Below are positions 14,375-64,000 of a stretch of 64,000 nucleotides of DNA, piece by piece. The position numbers and the translations under genes are program-made. Source of the stretch: Escherichia coli (GTDB lineage Bacteria > Pseudomonadota > Gammaproteobacteria > Enterobacterales > Enterobacteriaceae); the NCBI RefSeq assembly GCF_003334765.1, contig NZ_QOWT01000007.1; one strand, given 5' to 3'. Position 1 is the first letter of the stretch, and each line of letters opens with the position of its first letter. Under the pieces are notes generated by a model. That model saw only the letters and a program-made list of their open reading frames with translations, had not been told where the DNA came from and searched no databases.

Positions 14375-17695
<3,321 letters not shown>

Positions 17696-17861: not shown

Positions 17862-19814
17862 ATGAATTCGTTACAAATCTTGAGTTTTGTCGGTTTTACG
17901 CTGCTGGTGGCGGTGATCACCTGGTGGAAGGTCCGCAAAACAGATACCGGATCGCAACAAGGCTATTTTCTTGCCGGACGTTCACTAAAAGCGCCGGTTA
18001 TTGCCGCTTCGTTAATGCTAACCAACCTTTCCACGGAACAACTGGTCGGCCTTTCCGGGCAGGCCTACAAAAGCGGCATGTCGGTGATGGGCTGGGAAGT
18101 GACTTCAGCGGTGACGCTGATCTTCCTCGCGCTAATCTTTTTACCGCGCTATCTGAAGCGCGGCATTGCCACCATCCCCGATTTTCTGGAGGAACGTTAT
18201 GATAAAACGACGCGTATTATCATCGACTTCTGCTTCCTAATTGCCACCGGCGTCTGCTTTCTGCCGATTGTTCTCTACTCCGGCGCGTTGGCGCTCAACA
18301 GCCTGTTTCACGTCGGGGAATCGCTACAGATTTCTCACGGTGCGGCTATCTGGCTACTGGTAATTTTGCTTGGTCTGGCGGGAATTTTGTATGCGGTGAT
18401 CGGCGGACTGCGCGCAATGGCAGTGGCGGACTCCATCAACGGTATTGGGCTGGTTATCGGCGGGTTGATGGTGCCGGTATTTGGCCTGATCGCGATGGGC
18501 AAGGGCAGCTTTATGCAGGGCATTGAGCAACTCACCACCGTTCACGCCGAGAAATTAAACTCAATCGGTGGCCCGACCGATCCCTTGCCGATTGGCGCGG
18601 CATTTACCGGTTTGATTCTGGTGAACACCTTTTACTGGTGTACAAATCAGGGCATCGTGCAACGCACGCTGGCGTCAAAAAGCCTGGCGGAAGGGCAAAA
18701 GGGGGCGCTGTTAACGGCGGTGCTGAAAATGCTCGACCCGCTGGTACTGGTGCTGCCAGGGTTGATTGCGTTTCATCTGTATCAGGATTTACCGAAAGCC
18801 GACATGGCCTACCCGACGCTGGTCAATAACGTTCTGCCAGTGCCAATGGTGGGTTTCTTCGGCGCGGTGTTATTTGGTGCGGTGATCAGTACCTTCAACG
18901 GCTTTCTGAATAGCGCCAGTACGTTATTCAGTATGGGTATTTACCGTCGCATCATTAACCAGAATGCCGAGCCGCAGCAGCTGGTCACCGTCGGGCGCAA
19001 ATTTGGTTTCTTTATCGCTATCGTTTCGGTGCTGGTCGCGCCGTGGATCGCCAACGCGCCGCAGGGGCTGTATAGCTGGATGAAACAGCTCAACGGCATT
19101 TACAACGTGCCGCTGGTTACCATCATCATTATGGGCTTTTTCTTCCCGCGCATCCCGGCGCTGGCGGCAAAAGTAGCGATGGGGATTGGCATAATCAGCT
19201 ACATCACCATCAACTATCTGGTGAAGTTCGACTTCCATTTCCTCTATGTGCTGGCCTGTACGTTCTGCATCAACGTGGTCGTGATGCTGGTGATCGGTTT
19301 TATCAAACCGCGCGCCACGCCGTTCACCTTCAAAGATGCGTTTGCGGTGGACATGAAACCGTGGAAAAACGTCAAGATCGCGTCAATTGGCATCCTGTTC
19401 GCGATGATTGGCGTCTATGCCGGGCTGGCTGAATTCGGCGGCTACGGTACGCGCTGGTTAGCGATGATCAGTTATTTCATTGCCGCCGTAGTGATTGTCT
19501 ACCTGATTTTTGACAGCTGGCGGCGGAAGGTATTCGCTTTAATTCCGCCTACACCTGTTCACCGGTTTGTACGCCTGCACGGGCCGGACTATTTACCGGT
19601 ATCTACGCTAACCAGTCCGGCCCGTGGACCAACAACGTCGCGCCAGGCAAAAACATCTCCACTATGGGGCGCTACTTTAAGGATGCCGGCTATCACACCT
19701 GTTACATCGGCAAATGGCATCTCGACGGTCATGACTATTTCGGCACTGGCGAGTGTCCGCCGGAGTGGGACGCTGATTACTGGTTCGATGGGGCGAACTA
19801 TCTTAGCGAACTGA
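17862..19814 (+). CDS. yidK: SSS-family Na+/solute symporter YidK with an aberrant 3' end (reads out of frame into sulfatase DNA)
   Basis: Multi-TM transporter sequence to about codon 550 (...AAVVIVYLIFDSW), then about 100 codons of Pro/Arg/Ser/Thr-rich sequence overlapping the sulfatase gene in another frame; native end probably lost. Confidence 0.7.
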   Translation: MNSLQILSFVGFTLLVAVITWWKVRKTDTGSQQGYFLAGRSLKAPVIAASLMLTNLSTEQLVGLSGQAYKSGMSVMGWEVTSAVTLIFLALIFLPRYLKRGIATIPDFLEERYDKTTRIIIDFCFLIATGVCFLPIVLYSGALALNSLFHVGESLQISHGAAIWLLVILLGLAGILYAVIGGLRAMAVADSINGIGLVIGGLMVPVFGLIAMGKGSFMQGIEQLTTVHAEKLNSIGGPTDPLPIGAAFTGLILVNTFYWCTNQGIVQRTLASKSLAEGQKGALLTAVLKMLDPLVLVLPGLIAFHLYQDLPKADMAYPTLVNNVLPVPMVGFFGAVLFGAVISTFNGFLNSASTLFSMGIYRRIINQNAEPQQLVTVGRKFGFFIAIVSVLVAPWIANAPQGLYSWMKQLNGIYNVPLVTIIIMGFFFPRIPALAAKVAMGIGIISYITINYLVKFDFHFLYVLACTFCINVVVMLVIGFIKPRATPFTFKDAFAVDMKPWKNVKIASIGILFAMIGVYAGLAEFGGYGTRWLAMISYFIAAVVIVYLIFDSWRRKVFALIPPTPVHRFVRLHGPDYLPVSTLTSPARGPTTSRQAKTSPLWGATLRMPAITPVTSANGISTVMTISALASVRRSGTLITGSMGRTILAN

Positions 19815-40866: not shown

Positions 40867-41502
40867 TCTTCTGAATCACCGGGCGAAAAAATATAACTGA
40901 GTTACAAATAAGTACCAGTCGAATGAGTATTGTATTAAGAATTTTTGAGTATCGCTGATACAACCAGAAAGCAATGCTAGCGCAATATTATAGGGCCAGC
41001 AATTGAGATTATTAGTAAAAGCATGTTAAGAATTAATTACCGAATTTATATATTAATTATAGTAAGGCAATGAGCTATTTTTGATAGTAAAAATAAAACA
41101 AGTTGATTTGATATATTAAATGAACAAATTAATCTTGATGGCAGTCTGATTATTGGTGAAGTTTATAGTCAGTTTTTTTCGCCAGCGGTTAAAGAAATAG
41201 AATAGTCGTATAAAAAAGGGTGTTCTGGGGCGAGTAAAACAACATCTTCACCTTAATGGCGATACAGTTGGCTGAGAGTCAGCAGGGGGGCAAATCACCT
41301 GCAAATAAACACGGCGCATACTGGCGTGAATATCGCGGATGCGTTCGAGGACAGAAGAACCGACAGGCGGATTCTTCAGCCGCTCATCGTCCATCACAAA
41401 ACCTTAGACCAGGTATTCCTGAAGCCGATTGAATATTGAGCAGTAGAAAATATCTGGATTGACAGTATTACAAGGGGTTGGAGAACGTCAGGAGAGGCAT
41501 TT

Positions 41503-41597
41503 TGGCGGAAGATCACAGGAGTCGAACCTGCCCGGGACCGCTGGCGGCCCCAACTGGATTTGAAGTCCAGCCGCCTCACCGGAGACGACGATCTTCC
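41503..41597 (-). tRNA. selC: tRNA-Sec (selenocysteine tRNA, UCA anticodon)
   Basis: Reverse complement is GGAAGATCGTCGTCTCCGGTGAGGCGGCTGGACTTCAAATCCAGTTGGGGCCGCCAGCGGTCCCGGGCAGGTTCGACTCCTGTGATCTTCCGCCA, the 95-nt E. coli selC sequence with the long variable arm. Confidence 0.97.
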
Positions 41598-41889
41598 GCG
41601 CCTCGATTGCTACATGGAGGCGGGGCGCATTATAGCTACTTCCTTGAGTTTCTACATCCCCCAGATCAGTTTTTTCCGCCTAATACACGCAGCGTATTAT
41701 CACGAAAGCATTATAGTTCATATAAAATCCATATTTTACAATGATATATGAGCGGAATTAACGCTACCACGATCACATAAAACAAGAATCATAAATTAAT
41801 AACCAGATATCGGAATATTCGCTCTCACAGGGATGGTTTACAAAATGCGTTATCGGTCTCAGCACCCCTATAGCATCAAGGAAAAGTAG

Positions 41890-43272
41890 ATGAAGAGTGA
41901 AGTGTTGTCCGTTAAAGAGAAAATTGGTTATGGCATGGGAGACGCCGCCAGCCACATTATTTTCGATAACGTAATGTTATATATGATGTTCTTTTATACC
42001 GATATTTTTGGCATTCCTGCCGGATTTGTCGGAACCATGTTTTTGGTCGCTCGTGCACTGGATGCGATTTCCGATCCTTGCATGGGGTTGTTGGCCGATC
42101 GAACGCGCTCTCGCTGGGGTAAATTTCGTCCGTGGGTACTGTTTGGCGCACTGCCATTTGGGATCGTCTGTGTACTGGCCTATAGCACGCCAGATCTCAG
42201 TATGAACGGAAAAATGATTTATGCAGCAATTACTTACACCCTACTTACCTTACTTTATACCGTCGTCAATATCCCTTACTGCGCATTGGGTGGTGTAATC
42301 ACCAATGACCCGACTCAGCGTATCTCGCTGCAATCCTGGCGTTTTGTGCTGGCGACCGCGGGAGGCATGCTTTCTACGGTTCTGATGATGCCACTGGTTA
42401 ATTTAATTGGTGGTGATAATAAACCACTCGGTTTCCAGGGTGGTATCGCGGTCCTTTCCGTGGTGGCATTCATGATGCTGGCATTCTGTTTCTTCACCAC
42501 TAAAGAACGCGTTGAAGCACCACCTACAACGACGTCTATGCGGGAAGATTTACGTGATATCTGGCAAAACGACCAGTGGCGGATTGTCGGTTTACTAACC
42601 ATTTTCAATATCCTGGCGGTGTGCGTACGCGGTGGAGCGATGATGTATTACGTCACATGGATTTTGGGTACGCCGGAAGTGTTTGTCGCTTTTCTCACCA
42701 CTTATTGCGTGGGTAACCTGATTGGTTCCGCTCTGGCAAAACCGCTGACCGACTGGAAATGTAAAGTCACTATTTTCTGGTGGACGAACGCCCTGCTGGC
42801 AGTGATTAGCCTCGCGATGTTCTTTGTTCCCATGCAGGCCAGCATCACTATGTTTGTCTTCATCTTCGTGATTGGTGTGTTGCATCAACTGGTGACACCT
42901 ATCCAGTGGGTAATGATGTCCGATACCGTCGACTACGGCGAGTGGTGCAATGGTAAACGCCTGACCGGGATCAGTTTTGCTGGCACGCTGTTTGTGCTCA
43001 AACTGGGGTTGGCCTTCGGCGGCGCTCTTATCGGCTGGATGCTGGCTTATGGCGGATATGATGCGGCAGAAAAAGCGCAGAACAGCGCCACGATTAGCAT
43101 CATTATTGCGCTATTCACGATTGTTCCGGCGATCTGTTATTTGCTGAGCGCGATTATCGCTAAACGCTACTACTCACTCACGACGCACAATCTGAAAACC
43201 GTTATGGAACAGCTGGCCCAGGGCAAACGCCGTTGCCAGCAACAATTCACCTCTCAAGAAGTGCAGAACTAA
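41890..43272 (+). CDS. yicJ: GPH-family sugar (xyloside-type) transporter YicJ
   Basis: 460-aa ORF; upstream of and co-oriented with the GH31 gene. Confidence 0.85.
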   Translation: MKSEVLSVKEKIGYGMGDAASHIIFDNVMLYMMFFYTDIFGIPAGFVGTMFLVARALDAISDPCMGLLADRTRSRWGKFRPWVLFGALPFGIVCVLAYSTPDLSMNGKMIYAAITYTLLTLLYTVVNIPYCALGGVITNDPTQRISLQSWRFVLATAGGMLSTVLMMPLVNLIGGDNKPLGFQGGIAVLSVVAFMMLAFCFFTTKERVEAPPTTTSMREDLRDIWQNDQWRIVGLLTIFNILAVCVRGGAMMYYVTWILGTPEVFVAFLTTYCVGNLIGSALAKPLTDWKCKVTIFWWTNALLAVISLAMFFVPMQASITMFVFIFVIGVLHQLVTPIQWVMMSDTVDYGEWCNGKRLTGISFAGTLFVLKLGLAFGGALIGWMLAYGGYDAAEKAQNSATISIIIALFTIVPAICYLLSAIIAKRYYSLTTHNLKTVMEQLAQGKRRCQQQFTSQEVQN

Positions 43273-59233: not shown

Positions 59234-60058
59234 CTATTTCTTCTCTGTAATTTTTACACTGTTTTCCAACTGCTTGATGCTGACCTGCGGGGTCGGCAAC
59301 TCCTCAGGCATGGTTCCGCCAAGTTCCTGAATGGTTTGCATCACCTTGCTACCCACGTCAAAGTGTGTGGTATTAGCTTGCTGTTTTGAATTCACGCCAT
59401 CCCGCTTGAGTTTTTCTTCTGTTTGGGTAGCTCGAAAGAGATTAGCCGCCAGTTCTGTTGAACCCATATGATCCAGGATCTTCTGATTCTTTTTCAGCCC
59501 CTTCCGCTGATGAATAGCTTTCTGATCTAATCCACCATACAGCCCCTGGTAACCATGATTCTGAAATATGGCGAAATCAGTAGCTGTCGCTACCCCAGCT
59601 TGCTGTGCTGCCTCAACCAATTGTTTGTTATGTTCTTTCAACTCATTTCTCAGAAACAGACGCTTTTCGTCTTCACGAAGTTGCTTAAATGCTTCATCGT
59701 CAGCAAGCTCCTGCCGTCGGGTCTGGATAGCAAAATAAGTCTGCCCTGCCGCAATGACCGGTTTCGCAGGGTCGCCGTTTTGTACTACCAGGTAACAGGC
59801 ATAGCGGGAGAGTACGATGTCTTTTAATGCTCTTTTGGCATTTGAGCCAATTTTGACCATATCGAGGATCTCCTCGAAATGGTCATCAATTGTGTGACCA
59901 CTGTTCTCACAGGCTTCTTTGGCGCGCGTTAATACAGGTATAAAGTGACGATACTCTGAATAACCCAGTAGTTTCCCAAGTTGTCTTGCTGACCATTGTT
60001 CTGCTCCGTTTGCATTAATCAGTTTTATCTCTTCAAAAGGTTGATGATGTTCGTTCAT
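59234..60058 (-). CDS. dinD: DNA damage-inducible protein D
   Basis: 274 aa from MNEHHQPFEEIKL; LexA box 46 bp upstream. Confidence 0.85.
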   Translation of the reverse strand: MNEHHQPFEEIKLINANGAEQWSARQLGKLLGYSEYRHFIPVLTRAKEACENSGHTIDDHFEEILDMVKIGSNAKRALKDIVLSRYACYLVVQNGDPAKPVIAAGQTYFAIQTRRQELADDEAFKQLREDEKRLFLRNELKEHNKQLVEAAQQAGVATATDFAIFQNHGYQGLYGGLDQKAIHQRKGLKKNQKILDHMGSTELAANLFRATQTEEKLKRDGVNSKQQANTTHFDVGSKVMQTIQELGGTMPEELPTPQVSIKQLENSVKITEKK

Positions 60059-60103
60059 TGCCCACTCCATGTGATATCAATTGCAAAGAAAGTAAATCTG
60101 TAA

Positions 60104-60119
60104 CTGTATTTATATACAG
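60104..60119. promoter_or_regulatory. LexA box of dinD
   Basis: CTGTATTTATATACAG, a perfect CTGT-N8-ACAG match. Confidence 0.7.
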
Positions 60120-60206
60120 TTGTGAGTATCTCACGTTCTCAGTGTGCTGGGCAAAAAAACATCGCAAAATCTGGAGCAGGCACGAAAAACAGAATTGAAA
60201 GTTGCG

Positions 60207-60244
60207 GGGAAGAAAAATGCCGCTCTGTTTGAGTGGGCGGCATT
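60207..60244 (-). terminator. Candidate terminator downstream of yicC
   Basis: AATGCCGC ... GCGGCATT inverted repeat with a T-run on the minus strand. Confidence 0.45.
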
Positions 60245-60279
60245 TGTGAAGGCTGAAAAGTAAGAATTGGCGTTACGAG

Positions 60280-61143
60280 TTATTCAATATTCTGAATCTG
60301 CTCGCGCATCTGCTCAATCAACACTTTCAGCTCAATCGCGGAGTTTGTCACTTCGGCATTGATAGACTTCGACGCAAGAGTGTTCGACTCGCGGTTGAAC
60401 TCCTGCATCATAAAGTCCAGACGACGACCAACGGCTTCTTTTTTCTTCAGAATGTTGTAGGTCTCTTTGACATGCGCTTCGAGGCGGTCCAGTTCTTCGG
60501 CAACGTCAATTCGTTGTGCCAGCAGAACCAACTCCTGCTCCAGACGGTTGTTTTCCAACTGAACCTGAGCATCTTCCAGCTTCGCGACCAAGCGTTCACG
60601 CTGCCATTGCAGGATTTCCGGCATATGGGAGCGGACTTTGACCACTTCGGCGGTGACGCCTTCCAGACGCTGCTCGATCAATGCTTTCAGTGCCTGACCT
60701 TCGGTTTCGCGCGCGACAATAAAGTCGTCCAGCGTACCATCCAGCGCCGCGAGAATTTCAGCGGCAATGGCGTCAAGATCCTGCTCCTGGGCTGCCATCA
60801 CGCCCGGCCAGCGTAGAATATCAACCGGGTTGATTTCCCCTTCGTCACTCTGCATTTTTACCCAGTTCGCGGCAGTTACCAGCTGTTTAGCCAGTTTTTC
60901 GTTGAGGATCAGCTCACCTTGCGCGCTAACATCTGGCTCATAGCGCAGGGTACATTCCACTTTACCGCGCGTCAGGCGAGAACGAATACGCTCGCGAACG
61001 ACAGGTTCAAGGCTACGGAACTGCTCCGGCAGACGAAAGTAAGTTTCCAGATAACGCTGGTTTACCGAGCGCATTTCCCAGGTTGCGCTCCCCCATTCAC
61101 CCTTGATTTCACGCCGGGCGTAGGCGGTCATACTGCGGATCAT
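60280..61143 (-). CDS. yicC: YicC-family stress-induced protein (UPF0701)
   Basis: 287-aa ORF starting MIRSMTAYARREIKGEWGSATWEMRSVNQRYLE. Confidence 0.9.
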   Translation of the reverse strand: MIRSMTAYARREIKGEWGSATWEMRSVNQRYLETYFRLPEQFRSLEPVVRERIRSRLTRGKVECTLRYEPDVSAQGELILNEKLAKQLVTAANWVKMQSDEGEINPVDILRWPGVMAAQEQDLDAIAAEILAALDGTLDDFIVARETEGQALKALIEQRLEGVTAEVVKVRSHMPEILQWQRERLVAKLEDAQVQLENNRLEQELVLLAQRIDVAEELDRLEAHVKETYNILKKKEAVGRRLDFMMQEFNRESNTLASKSINAEVTNSAIELKVLIEQMREQIQNIE

Positions 61144-61269
61144 AGACGTTCCTGTTTATAAAAGGAGAGGTGGAAGGATTATAGCCATCGATGCCTTGTC
61201 AGGATAGGAATAACCGCCGGAAGTCCGTATAATGCGCAGCCACATTTGTTTCAAGCCGGAGATTTCAAT

Positions 61270-61986
61270 ATGCGTCCAGCAGGCCGTAGCAATAATCAGG
61301 TGCGTCCCGTTACCCTGACTCGTAACTATACAAAACATGCAGAAGGCTCGGTGCTGGTCGAATTTGGCGATACCAAAGTGTTGTGTACCGCCTCTATTGA
61401 AGAAGGCGTGCCGCGCTTCCTGAAAGGTCAGGGCCAGGGCTGGATCACCGCAGAGTACGGCATGCTGCCACGTTCTACCCACACCCGTAACGCTCGTGAA
61501 GCGGCGAAAGGTAAGCAGGGTGGACGCACAATGGAAATCCAGCGTCTGATCGCCCGTGCGCTTCGCGCGGCAGTAGATTTGAAAGCGCTGGGTGAGTTCA
61601 CCATTACGCTGGACTGCGACGTGCTTCAGGCTGATGGTGGCACGCGTACCGCTTCGATTACGGGTGCCTGTGTGGCGCTGGCAGATGCGCTACAGAAGCT
61701 GGTGGAAAACGGCAAGCTGAAAACCAACCCGATGAAAGGGATGGTAGCCGCGGTTTCTGTCGGGATTGTGAACGGCGAAGCGGTTTGCGATCTGGAATAC
61801 GTTGAAGACTCTGCCGCAGAGACCGACATGAACGTAGTGATGACCGAAGACGGGCGCATCATTGAAGTGCAGGGGACGGCAGAAGGCGAGCCGTTCACCC
61901 ATGAAGAGCTACTCACCTTGTTGGCGCTGGCCCGAGGGGGAATCGAATCCATTGTAGCGACGCAGAAGGCGGCGCTGGCAAACTGA
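61270..61986 (+). CDS. rph: Ribonuclease PH, full-length (238 aa)
   Basis: 238 aa from [14 protein letters not shown] to ...[18 protein letters not shown]; no frameshift near the 3' end. Confidence 0.9.
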
Positions 61987-61993
61987 TTTTTAA

Positions 61994-62019
61994 GGCGACT
62001 GATGAGTCGCTTTTTTTTG
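61994..62019 (+). terminator. pyrE attenuator hairpin
   Basis: GGCGACTGATGAGTCGC followed by TTTTTTTT, between rph and pyrE. Confidence 0.6.
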
Positions 62020-62050
62020 TCTGTAGAAAAGTAAGATGAGGAGCGAAGGC

Positions 62051-62692
62051 ATGAAACCATATCAGCGCCAGTTTATTGAATTTGCGCTTAGCAAGCAGGT
62101 GTTAAAGTTTGGCGAGTTTACGCTGAAATCCGGGCGTAAAAGCCCCTATTTCTTCAACGCCGGGCTGTTTAATACCGGGCGCGACCTGGCACTGTTAGGC
62201 CGTTTTTACGCTGAAGCATTGGTGGACTCCGGCATTGAGTTCGATCTGCTGTTTGGCCCTGCTTACAAAGGGATCCCGATTGCCACCACAACCGCCGTGG
62301 CGTTGGCGGAGCATCATGACCTGGACCTGCCGTACTGCTTTAACCGCAAAGAGGCAAAAGACCACGGTGAAGGCGGCAATCTGGTTGGTAGCGCGTTACA
62401 AGGACGCGTAATGCTGGTAGATGATGTGATCACCGCCGGAACGGCGATTCGTGAGTCGATGGAAATTATTCAGGCCAATGGCGCGACGCTTGCTGGCGTG
62501 TTGATTTCGCTCGATCGTCAGGAACGGGGGCGCGGCGAGATTTCGGCGATTCAGGAAGTTGAGCGTGATTACAACTGCAAAGTGATCTCTATCATCACCC
62601 TGAAAGATCTGATTGCTTACCTGGAAGAGAAGCCGGAAATGGCGGAACATCTGGCGGCGGTTAAGGCCTATCGCGAAGAGTTTGGCGTTTAA
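62051..62692 (+). CDS. pyrE: Orotate phosphoribosyltransferase
   Basis: 213 aa from [23 protein letters not shown]. Confidence 0.95.
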
Positions 62693-62728
62693 AGAAACTC
62701 GCCGGATGAAAATTCATCCGGCGTCATA

Positions 62729-63325
62729 TTACTGCAACTGCGCGGCAATTAGCGGCCAGCGGGCGTCAAAATCATCCGTCGGGCGGTATTTAAATTCGCT
62801 GCGGACAAAACGTGACAGCATACCTTCACAGAAGGCCAGGATCTGGCTTGCCAGCAGGGTTTCATCGGTGGTGTAACCTTCACCCTCACGCATTCTCTTT
62901 TCACGCAATACCTGGCGCAGCTGCGCTTCAATACGCTCGAACAGCTGGTTGATGCGCCCTTGCAGGCGATCCTGTTCAAACATTAGCGCATGACCAGTGA
63001 GGATGCGGGTCAGGCCAGGATTACGCTCACCAAAACCGAGAAGCAGCAACACAATCAGACGCAGGCGCGCTGTGGTGTCTTTCTCATCTTTCAGAATCAG
63101 ATTGATGCGAGTAATCAGGCTATCTTCGATAAACTCAATCAGGCTATCGAACATGCGGGTCTTACTGGGGAAGTGGCGATACAGTGCCGCTTCGGAAACG
63201 CCGACAGAGGCGGCCAGTTTTGCCGTCGTGATACGTTGGCTTCCATCGCTGGATTCCAGCATCAGCGCCAGAGACTGAAGTATTTCCTCGCGACGGTTCC
63301 TTTTCGCAGTTTGTTTTTCTGCCAT
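62729..63325 (-). CDS. slmA: Nucleoid occlusion factor SlmA (TetR family)
   Basis: 198 aa from [24 protein letters not shown]. Confidence 0.9.
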
Positions 63326-63431
63326 GTTACAAAATACCCCTGAAAATAAGCACTTGCCAGGCGGCACCCACGCTATGACCGCAAACGAAATGTTTGCGGC
63401 TATGTTATGACGTTATTCGGATGCGTATGTG

Positions 63432-63890
63432 TTACTGACGACCAGAGTGACCAAAGCCGCCTTCACCGCGGTCGGTGGCGTCGAAATCTTCCACCAGATT
63501 AAATTCAGCCTGTACTACCGGAACAAAAATCATCTGGGCGATGCGTTCGCCAGGTTGAATGGTGAAGCTGTCCTGACCACGGTTCCACACGGAAATCATC
63601 AACTGGCCCTGATAGTCGGAATCGATCAATCCTACCAGGTTACCAAGCACGATACCGTGCTTATGTCCCAATCCGGAGCGCGGCAGCATCATTGCCGCCA
63701 GTGAAGGATCGGCAATATGAATCGCCAGCCCGGTCGGAACCAGCGTAGTGTCACCCGGAGCCAGTTCTACGGCGTCGTCGAGACAGGCACGCAGGTCAAG
63801 TCCGGCAGAGCCAGAGGTGGCATAAGTCGGGAGCGGAAATTCCTTCCCAACGCGCGGGTCCAGAATCTTAACGTCGATTTTTTTCATCAT
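63432..63890 (-). CDS. dut: dUTP diphosphatase
   Basis: 152 aa starting [15 protein letters not shown]; ends ...GGFGHSGRQ. Confidence 0.9.
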
Positions 63891-64000
63891 AACGGGTCAC
63901 GATCTCGTCGAGTAATAATTGGCCAAGGAGCTCTTTGCGCTCAAGCGGTAAGACTTTATCTCCGTCCTGCCAGAAAAGGTGTAATGCGTTGTTGTCGCTG
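63868..64000 (-). CDS. coaBC: Phosphopantothenoylcysteine decarboxylase / phosphopantothenate-cysteine ligase CoaBC (Dfp), C-terminal fragment
   Basis: Minus-strand frame ...[25 protein letters not shown] then stop at 63868-63870; overlaps the dut start by about 23 nt; 5' end outside the window. Confidence 0.85.

Follow-up and report, generated by a model that had tools for sequence, protein, structure and literature searches.

The window analysed here, a stretch of 64,000 nt of Escherichia coli DNA, carries the rph-pyrE operon close to its end. The operon comprises an intact gene for RNase PH, a phosphorolytic 3'-5' exoribonuclease that trims the 3' ends of tRNAs, the pyrE attenuator and the gene for orotate phosphoribosyltransferase. 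The features of the locus, with the evidence for each in brackets, are the following.

61228..61233, + strand: perfect TATAAT hexamer, 37 nt 5' of the rph ATG, possible -10 element of an rph-pyrE promoter (read from the sequence, by inference only)
61258..61261, + strand: GGAG, Shine-Dalgarno sequence of rph, 8 nt 5' of the ATG (sequence)
61270..61986, + strand: rph, intact RNase PH gene, 238 codons and TGA (ORF, TIGR01966, 1R6L alignment, NCTC9087 annotation)
61936..61940, + strand: GGGGG run, the rph-1 site, GGGG in MG1655 (alignments; 53-mer with five Gs in 5,170 of 5,426 genomes, 52-mer with four Gs in 168)
61955..61957, + strand: TAG, out of frame in the window, the premature stop of rph-1 after loss of one G (MG1655 translation, frame arithmetic)
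61984..61986, + strand: TGA stop codon of rph, first base 10 nt 5' of the G+C stem of the attenuator (sequence)
61992..62018, + strand: pyrE attenuator, an intrinsic terminator, AAGGCGACU-GAUG-AGUCGCUUU followed by a U tract (terminator scan, RNA fold)
62010..62011, + strand: site of a C that is missing relative to MG1655 and most E. coli (alignments; 69-mer counts)
62038..62043, + strand: GAGGAG, Shine-Dalgarno sequence of pyrE (sequence)
62051..62692, + strand: pyrE, orotate phosphoribosyltransferase, 213 aa (TIGR00336, E=8e-72; WP_000806177.1 at the same position in NCTC9087)
62700..62723, no strand assigned: G+C-rich hairpin between the convergent pyrE and slmA, likely an operon-end terminator (terminator scan: 10 pairs, 7 of them G-C)

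The rph reading frame extends from the ATG at 61270 to the TGA at 61984-61986 (714 nt, 238 codons) and its translation ends in ...ATQKAALAN, in agreement with the original prediction of a full-length gene. The NCBIfam equivalog model for RNase PH, TIGR01966, matches the product with 380.8 bits against a cutoff of 141.5 (E=1.9e-114) over model positions 1-235 of 236, and the solved RNase PH of P. aeruginosa (1R6L) aligns with it end to end (E=3.7e-104; query 2-237 on chain residues 3-238 of 239); rph is therefore a real gene and not a chance open reading frame. Further solved structures matching the product are 1OYP, 3B4T, 3DD6 and 1UDN. The protein is identical to WP_001247093.1, which is annotated as 'ribonuclease PH' at the same coordinates in NCTC9087 and also occurs in UTI89, O157:H7 and NCTC86, and we infer its activity from this shared, annotated RefSeq protein. 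Codons 138 and 216 (window 61682 and 61916) specify A138 and T216 in the window, UTI89, O157:H7 and NCTC86, and V138 and I216 in K-12, including the rph+ strains of K-12, whose Rph is WP_001247096.1. The comparison indicates that the RNase PH of K-12 has two lineage-specific substitutions besides rph-1. The list of open reading frames prolongs rph to a TTG at 61246; the near-identical NCTC9087 record annotates the ATG start. Upstream of rph, a consensus promoter scan found no full sigma-70 -35/-10 pair; the lone TATAAT is visible there, and could possibly serve as the -10 element of the rph-pyrE promoter.

Downstream of rph, 7 nt (61987-61993, TTTTTAA) separate the TGA from the G+C stem that begins with GGCGAC at 61994, or 10 nt when the stop codon is included; the spacing of 7 bp between the rph stop and the hairpin had been described correctly before. 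The hairpin GGCGAC-TGATGA-GTCGC occupies 61994-62010, with GGCGAC at 61994-61999, and is followed by a run of eight Ts (62011-62018) and a G at 62019. Both the terminator scan and RNA folding extend the stem by flanking A-U pairs to 61992-62013, with 9 pairs and a loop of 4. The predicted minimum free energy is -13.8 kcal/mol (z=-4.9), a stability reached by none of 200 shuffled sequences. The locus thus shows the hallmarks of the pyrE attenuator, namely an intergenic G+C hairpin with a U tract and the end of the upstream open reading frame within about 10 nt of the hairpin. From the end of the U tract to pyrE there are 33 nt. The list of open reading frames prolongs pyrE to an in-frame ATG at 62036 (218 aa), which lies inside the Shine-Dalgarno region; the annotation and the family model support the start at 62051. 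Beyond pyrE, the hairpin at 62700-62723 likely terminates the operon, judging from its predicted structure. The Rfam scan of 60000-64000 returned a chance-level match alone (E=0.62), and Rfam has no curated family for the pyrE leader.

Pairwise and multiple alignment with MG1655 (NC_000913.3) as the reference revealed five Gs at window 61936-61940 where MG1655 has four, which is the single-base difference near the 3' end of rph that such an alignment had been expected to reveal. The run covers codons 223-224, and with one G fewer the reading frame changes from codon 224 onwards. The translated MG1655 allele ends in ...LALARGESNPL followed by a stop; it is 228 aa long, with the last 15 codons altered and 10 residues fewer, covers only positions 1-221 of 236 in TIGR01966, and is labelled 'truncated RNase PH' in RefSeq. 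The truncation of Rph by the rph-1 frameshift, as originally stated, is thus seen in both the alignment and the translation, and its polarity on pyrE is reported in PMC9997739. The window shows none of the marks of the rph-1 allele (four Gs in place of five, the premature TAG, a product of 228 aa), as it has five Gs and reads through to codon 238. Over the 1,423 nt of rph-pyrE, the window and MG1655 differ at 24 positions, including the two Rph residues and a second 1-bp indel in the attenuator hairpin; identity to MG1655 across this segment, the outcome named in advance as speaking against the prediction, is false. The K-12 rph+ strains NEB10-beta and MC4100 differ from MG1655 at rph-pyrE by the single G as the sole difference, and from the window at 23 positions in the same 1.42 kb.

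To place the two alleles in the species, probes centred on the G run were matched exactly against 5,426 complete E. coli genomes. The rph+ probe (five Gs, 53-mer) occurs in 5,170 of them and the rph-1 probe (four Gs, 52-mer) in 168, and intact rph is the norm of the species, at about 95% of sequenced E. coli. Among the 60 rph-1 genomes listed of the 168, all but one are MG1655, W3110, BW25113, J53, HMS174, ME8067 and other laboratory genomes of about 4.6 Mb; nearly all of these sampled rph-1 genomes are K-12 derivatives. The exception among the 60 is the 5.3-Mb genome of a clinical, non-K-12 strain, 2015C-3101 (NZ_CP027221.1), in which rph (at 244-959 of the extracted locus) is annotated as 'frameshifted'. 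Its four Gs reflect either a separate slippage event in this run or a homopolymer error in the assembly.

Within K-12, the five-G run is found in NEB10-beta (a DH10B-type strain), MC1061, XL10-Gold and MC4100, and a probe combining K-12 flanks with five Gs matches about 180 genomes within one difference, among them C600, DH5alpha, DH1, RR1 and NCM3722. Roughly half of the complete RefSeq genomes with the K-12 haplotype are therefore rph+ (about 180, against 168 with four Gs). The rph-1 allele has been reported in EMG2, MG1655 and W3110 and as absent from WG1 (PMC9997739). Thus, the rph status marks a branch inside K-12 and not K-12 as a whole, which corrects the shortcut that an intact rph means a strain other than K-12. 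The original prediction had taken the intact gene as a pointer to a wild-type or non-K-12 background. Its conclusion on the background holds, but because many K-12 laboratory strains are rph+ (C600, DH5alpha, DH1, MC4100, MC1061, NEB10-beta and NCM3722), intact rph alone does not exclude K-12; it is the surrounding substitutions that do.

The window is colinear with the reverse strand of MG1655 (3877977..3813819), so that the gene order is K-12-like, as had been noted. The first 41.6 kb of the window contain about 8 substitutions relative to MG1655, and from about 41.7 kb the divergence is 1-2%, with 233 mismatches between 42 and 64 kb; rph-pyrE sits in this divergent block. The switch occurs at selC (tRNA-Sec, 41503-41597, - strand; coordinates from the NCTC9087 annotation). 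The boundary, at about 41500-41900, is a recombination breakpoint at the classic selC island-insertion site. The window is not near-identical to the K-12 references; its best match is NCTC9087 (NZ_LR134231.1, 5753-69752), with 3 mismatches and 0 gaps in 64,000 nt (99.995% identity). The divergent 25 kb are 100% identical in many natural isolates (NCTC9087, P13-6 and SHP24), and ML35 has about 1 mismatch there. These comparisons indicate that the Rph allele is one widespread in the species, carried on a non-K-12 haplotype that is close to K-12 over part of the window.

Two further loci in the K-12-like part separate the window from MG1655, and had been suggested to be strain-specific, as they indeed are. 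At glvC, the window has CAG at 15479-15481 (C at 15479) where the MG1655 gene ends in TAG, and the open reading frame (about 14375-15991) runs on into glvB to encode one PTS EIICB protein of 538 aa; NCTC9087 has a PTS gene of 1,617 nt. The split of glvC and glvB is thus a K-12 nonsense mutation. At yidK/yidJ, the window lacks 159 bp relative to MG1655, deleted between two 8-bp CTGGCGGC direct repeats, with the junction repeat at 19518-19525. The deletion removes the 3' end of yidK and the 5' end of yidJ, and is shared by NCTC9087, whose record lists both genes as partial pseudogenes. Of the 5,426 genomes, 5,070 retain the deleted segment, and one of these is M217, which has the rph-pyrE haplotype of the window. 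By sequence comparison, the defect lies on the K-12 side for glvC and on the side of the window for yidK/yidJ.

Taken together, the results make it almost certain that the locus is a normal rph-pyrE operon in its wild-type form, from a natural E. coli outside K-12. A source within K-12, either from the branch that lacks rph-1 (C600, DH5alpha, DH1, MC4100, DH10B, NCM3722) or as a revertant, could draw on the abundance of rph+ K-12 genomes, on the single G that alone distinguishes NEB10-beta and MC4100 from MG1655, and on the few substitutions in the first 41.6 kb. It is nevertheless highly improbable, and we reject it, because K-12 is excluded by the 23 positions at which the window departs from K-12 rph+ strains over the 1.42 kb of rph-pyrE and by the 233 mismatches in the last 22 kb. 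Moreover, the K-12-like part itself has 8 SNPs, the 159-bp deletion and CAG in place of the glvC TAG, the Rph is the non-K-12 variant, and NCTC9087 matches with only 3 mismatches in 64 kb. These differences, together with the near-identity to NCTC9087, bear out the earlier view of the background.

The sharp change in divergence at about 41.6-41.7 kb, at selC, would also fit a laboratory hybrid, in which K-12 was crossed or transduced with another strain as in HB101 or RR1 and the first 41.6 kb are K-12-like while the last 22 kb diverge by 1-2%; such hybrid laboratory strains are documented (PMC5379014). This origin, too, is very unlikely and was rejected, as the K-12-like part departs from K-12 itself by 8 SNPs, by the yidK/yidJ deletion and by its intact glvC, and the full mosaic occurs in natural and culture-collection strains (NCTC9087, P13-6, SHP24, ML35 and others). 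RR1, moreover, has the K-12 haplotype at rph-pyrE, and natural recombination would give such mosaic similarity among phylogroup A strains. Lastly, the fifth G could be a homopolymer error of sequencing or assembly that masks a frameshifted gene, since runs of five Gs and eight Ts are error-prone on some platforms and the four Gs of 2015C-3101 may have arisen in this way, if not by a genuine separate slip. We consider this the least probable of the explanations and have discarded it on the basis of the population frequency and the full-length model match: five Gs are present in 5,170 of the 5,426 genomes and in all of the non-K-12 genomes that were aligned, the resulting protein agrees with the family model and with a solved structure up to its C-terminal residues, and dozens of independent assemblies are 100% identical over the locus.

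According to the literature, the intergenic terminator between rph and pyrE is the pyrE attenuator, and read-through is set by the distance at which a ribosome translating the end of rph trails RNA polymerase, a distance governed in turn by UTP-sensitive pausing of the polymerase (PMC2784333 and the supplement of PMC5933015, citing Bonekamp et al. 1984 and Jensen 1993). The distance from the end of translation to the terminator is given as 10 bp in rph+ strains and 36 bp in K-12 rph-1 (PMC5933015, supplement), and rph-1 leads to polarity on pyrE and partial pyrimidine starvation (PMC9997739; PMC5933015, supplement). In the window, the last codons of rph would double as the pyrE leader, and a ribosome that reaches the rph stop, 7 nt before the stem, would cover the 5' arm of the hairpin. 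When UTP is low, RNA polymerase would be slowed with the ribosome close behind, the terminator would be blocked and pyrE would be transcribed; when UTP is high, the polymerase would run ahead of the ribosome and terminate. In rph-1, the loss of one G from the run of five would place the stop about 29 nt further upstream, so that the ribosome would fall short of the hairpin, termination would be high and pyrE under-expressed. With its five Gs and the wild-type geometry of stop and hairpin, the window would be expected to retain normal coupling. The set-point of attenuation may differ from that of K-12, given the 1-bp difference in the hairpin.

This difference, which was absent from the original prediction, is one C fewer in the 3' arm of the hairpin: the window has GTCGC followed by eight Ts, and MG1655, the K-12 rph+ strains, UTI89 and O157:H7 have GTCGCC followed by eight Ts. 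An exact 69-mer of the window version occurs in 488 of the 5,426 genomes and the version with two Cs in 4,581. The missing C turns one G-C pair of the stem into G-U and leaves one U fewer after the stem, and the predicted stability falls from -15.8 kcal/mol in MG1655 to -13.8 kcal/mol in the window, about 2 kcal/mol weaker. NCTC9087 and NCTC86 carry the allele on the same rph-pyrE haplotype as the window. A chimeric probe (K-12 flanks, five Gs, missing C) had no exact match in the genome collection, its best matches being K-12 rph+ strains with the C. A recurrent origin of the allele on the K-12 haplotype was provisionally rejected on this ground, and because the aligned carriers (the window, NCTC9087 and NCTC86) share one haplotype.

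The same change is known from experimental evolution. According to the supplement of PMC5933015 (Knoppel et al. 2018), pyrE(G-41delG), marked 'terminator', was selected in at least 3 lineages of MG1655 evolved in Mueller-Hinton (MH) medium, and G-42C and a poly-U A-33delA were selected alongside it; in that supplement, the authors regard these terminator mutations as 'putatively' raising read-through. Checking the numbering against the sequence, positions -41 and -42 are the two Cs of GTCGCC and positions -33 to -40 are the run of eight Ts. The suppressor pyrE G-41delG, recurrent in the laboratory, is thus also found in nature as a minority polymorphism, which we consider a mildly new point. 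The G-U pair in place of G-C, the U tract shorter by one, the lower predicted stability and the selection of the same change in MG1655 raise the possibility that the natural allele is a functionally weakened pyrE attenuator; we put this forward tentatively, with slightly more doubt than belief. If true, about 9% of sequenced E. coli, including NCTC86, would have a pyrimidine attenuation set-point different from that of textbook K-12.

The intact rph-pyrE of the window is a textbook operon in its common wild-type form; the natural allele of the attenuator is the only remaining novelty. As a marker of provenance, the locus indicates that the window does not come from K-12 of the MG1655, W3110 or BW25113 type, so that it is free of the pyrimidine-limitation artefact of those strains.

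Compared with the rph-1 operon of K-12 MG1655 and W3110, the window has the same locus, gene order and attenuator architecture, but in rph-1 the stop lies about 36-39 nt before the hairpin, and in the window 7-10 nt. Another 23 positions separate the K-12 haplotype from that of the window, among them A138V and T216I in Rph and the extra C in the hairpin. The wild-type operons of NCTC9087 and NCTC86 resemble the window in Rph, PyrE, the spacing between stop and hairpin, and the attenuator allele; NCTC86, which is Escherich's strain, differs from the window at 1 position in 1.42 kb, as it has seven Ts instead of eight after the hairpin. The pyrE(G-41delG) mutation of evolved MG1655 has an identical outcome in the 3' arm, where GTCGCC before the eight Ts becomes GTCGC. 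However, it arose in the laboratory in rph-1 cells, as a suppressor of their pyrimidine limitation, whereas the window carries a natural allele in an rph+ background. Leader attenuation of pyrBI is likewise a UTP-sensitive coupling of transcription and translation. By analogy, the logic of rph-pyrE would be the same, with a ribosome at the terminator hairpin suppressing termination when low UTP slows the polymerase; but pyrBI uses a dedicated short leader peptide, whereas in rph-pyrE the final part of a gene for a genuine enzyme would act as the leader.
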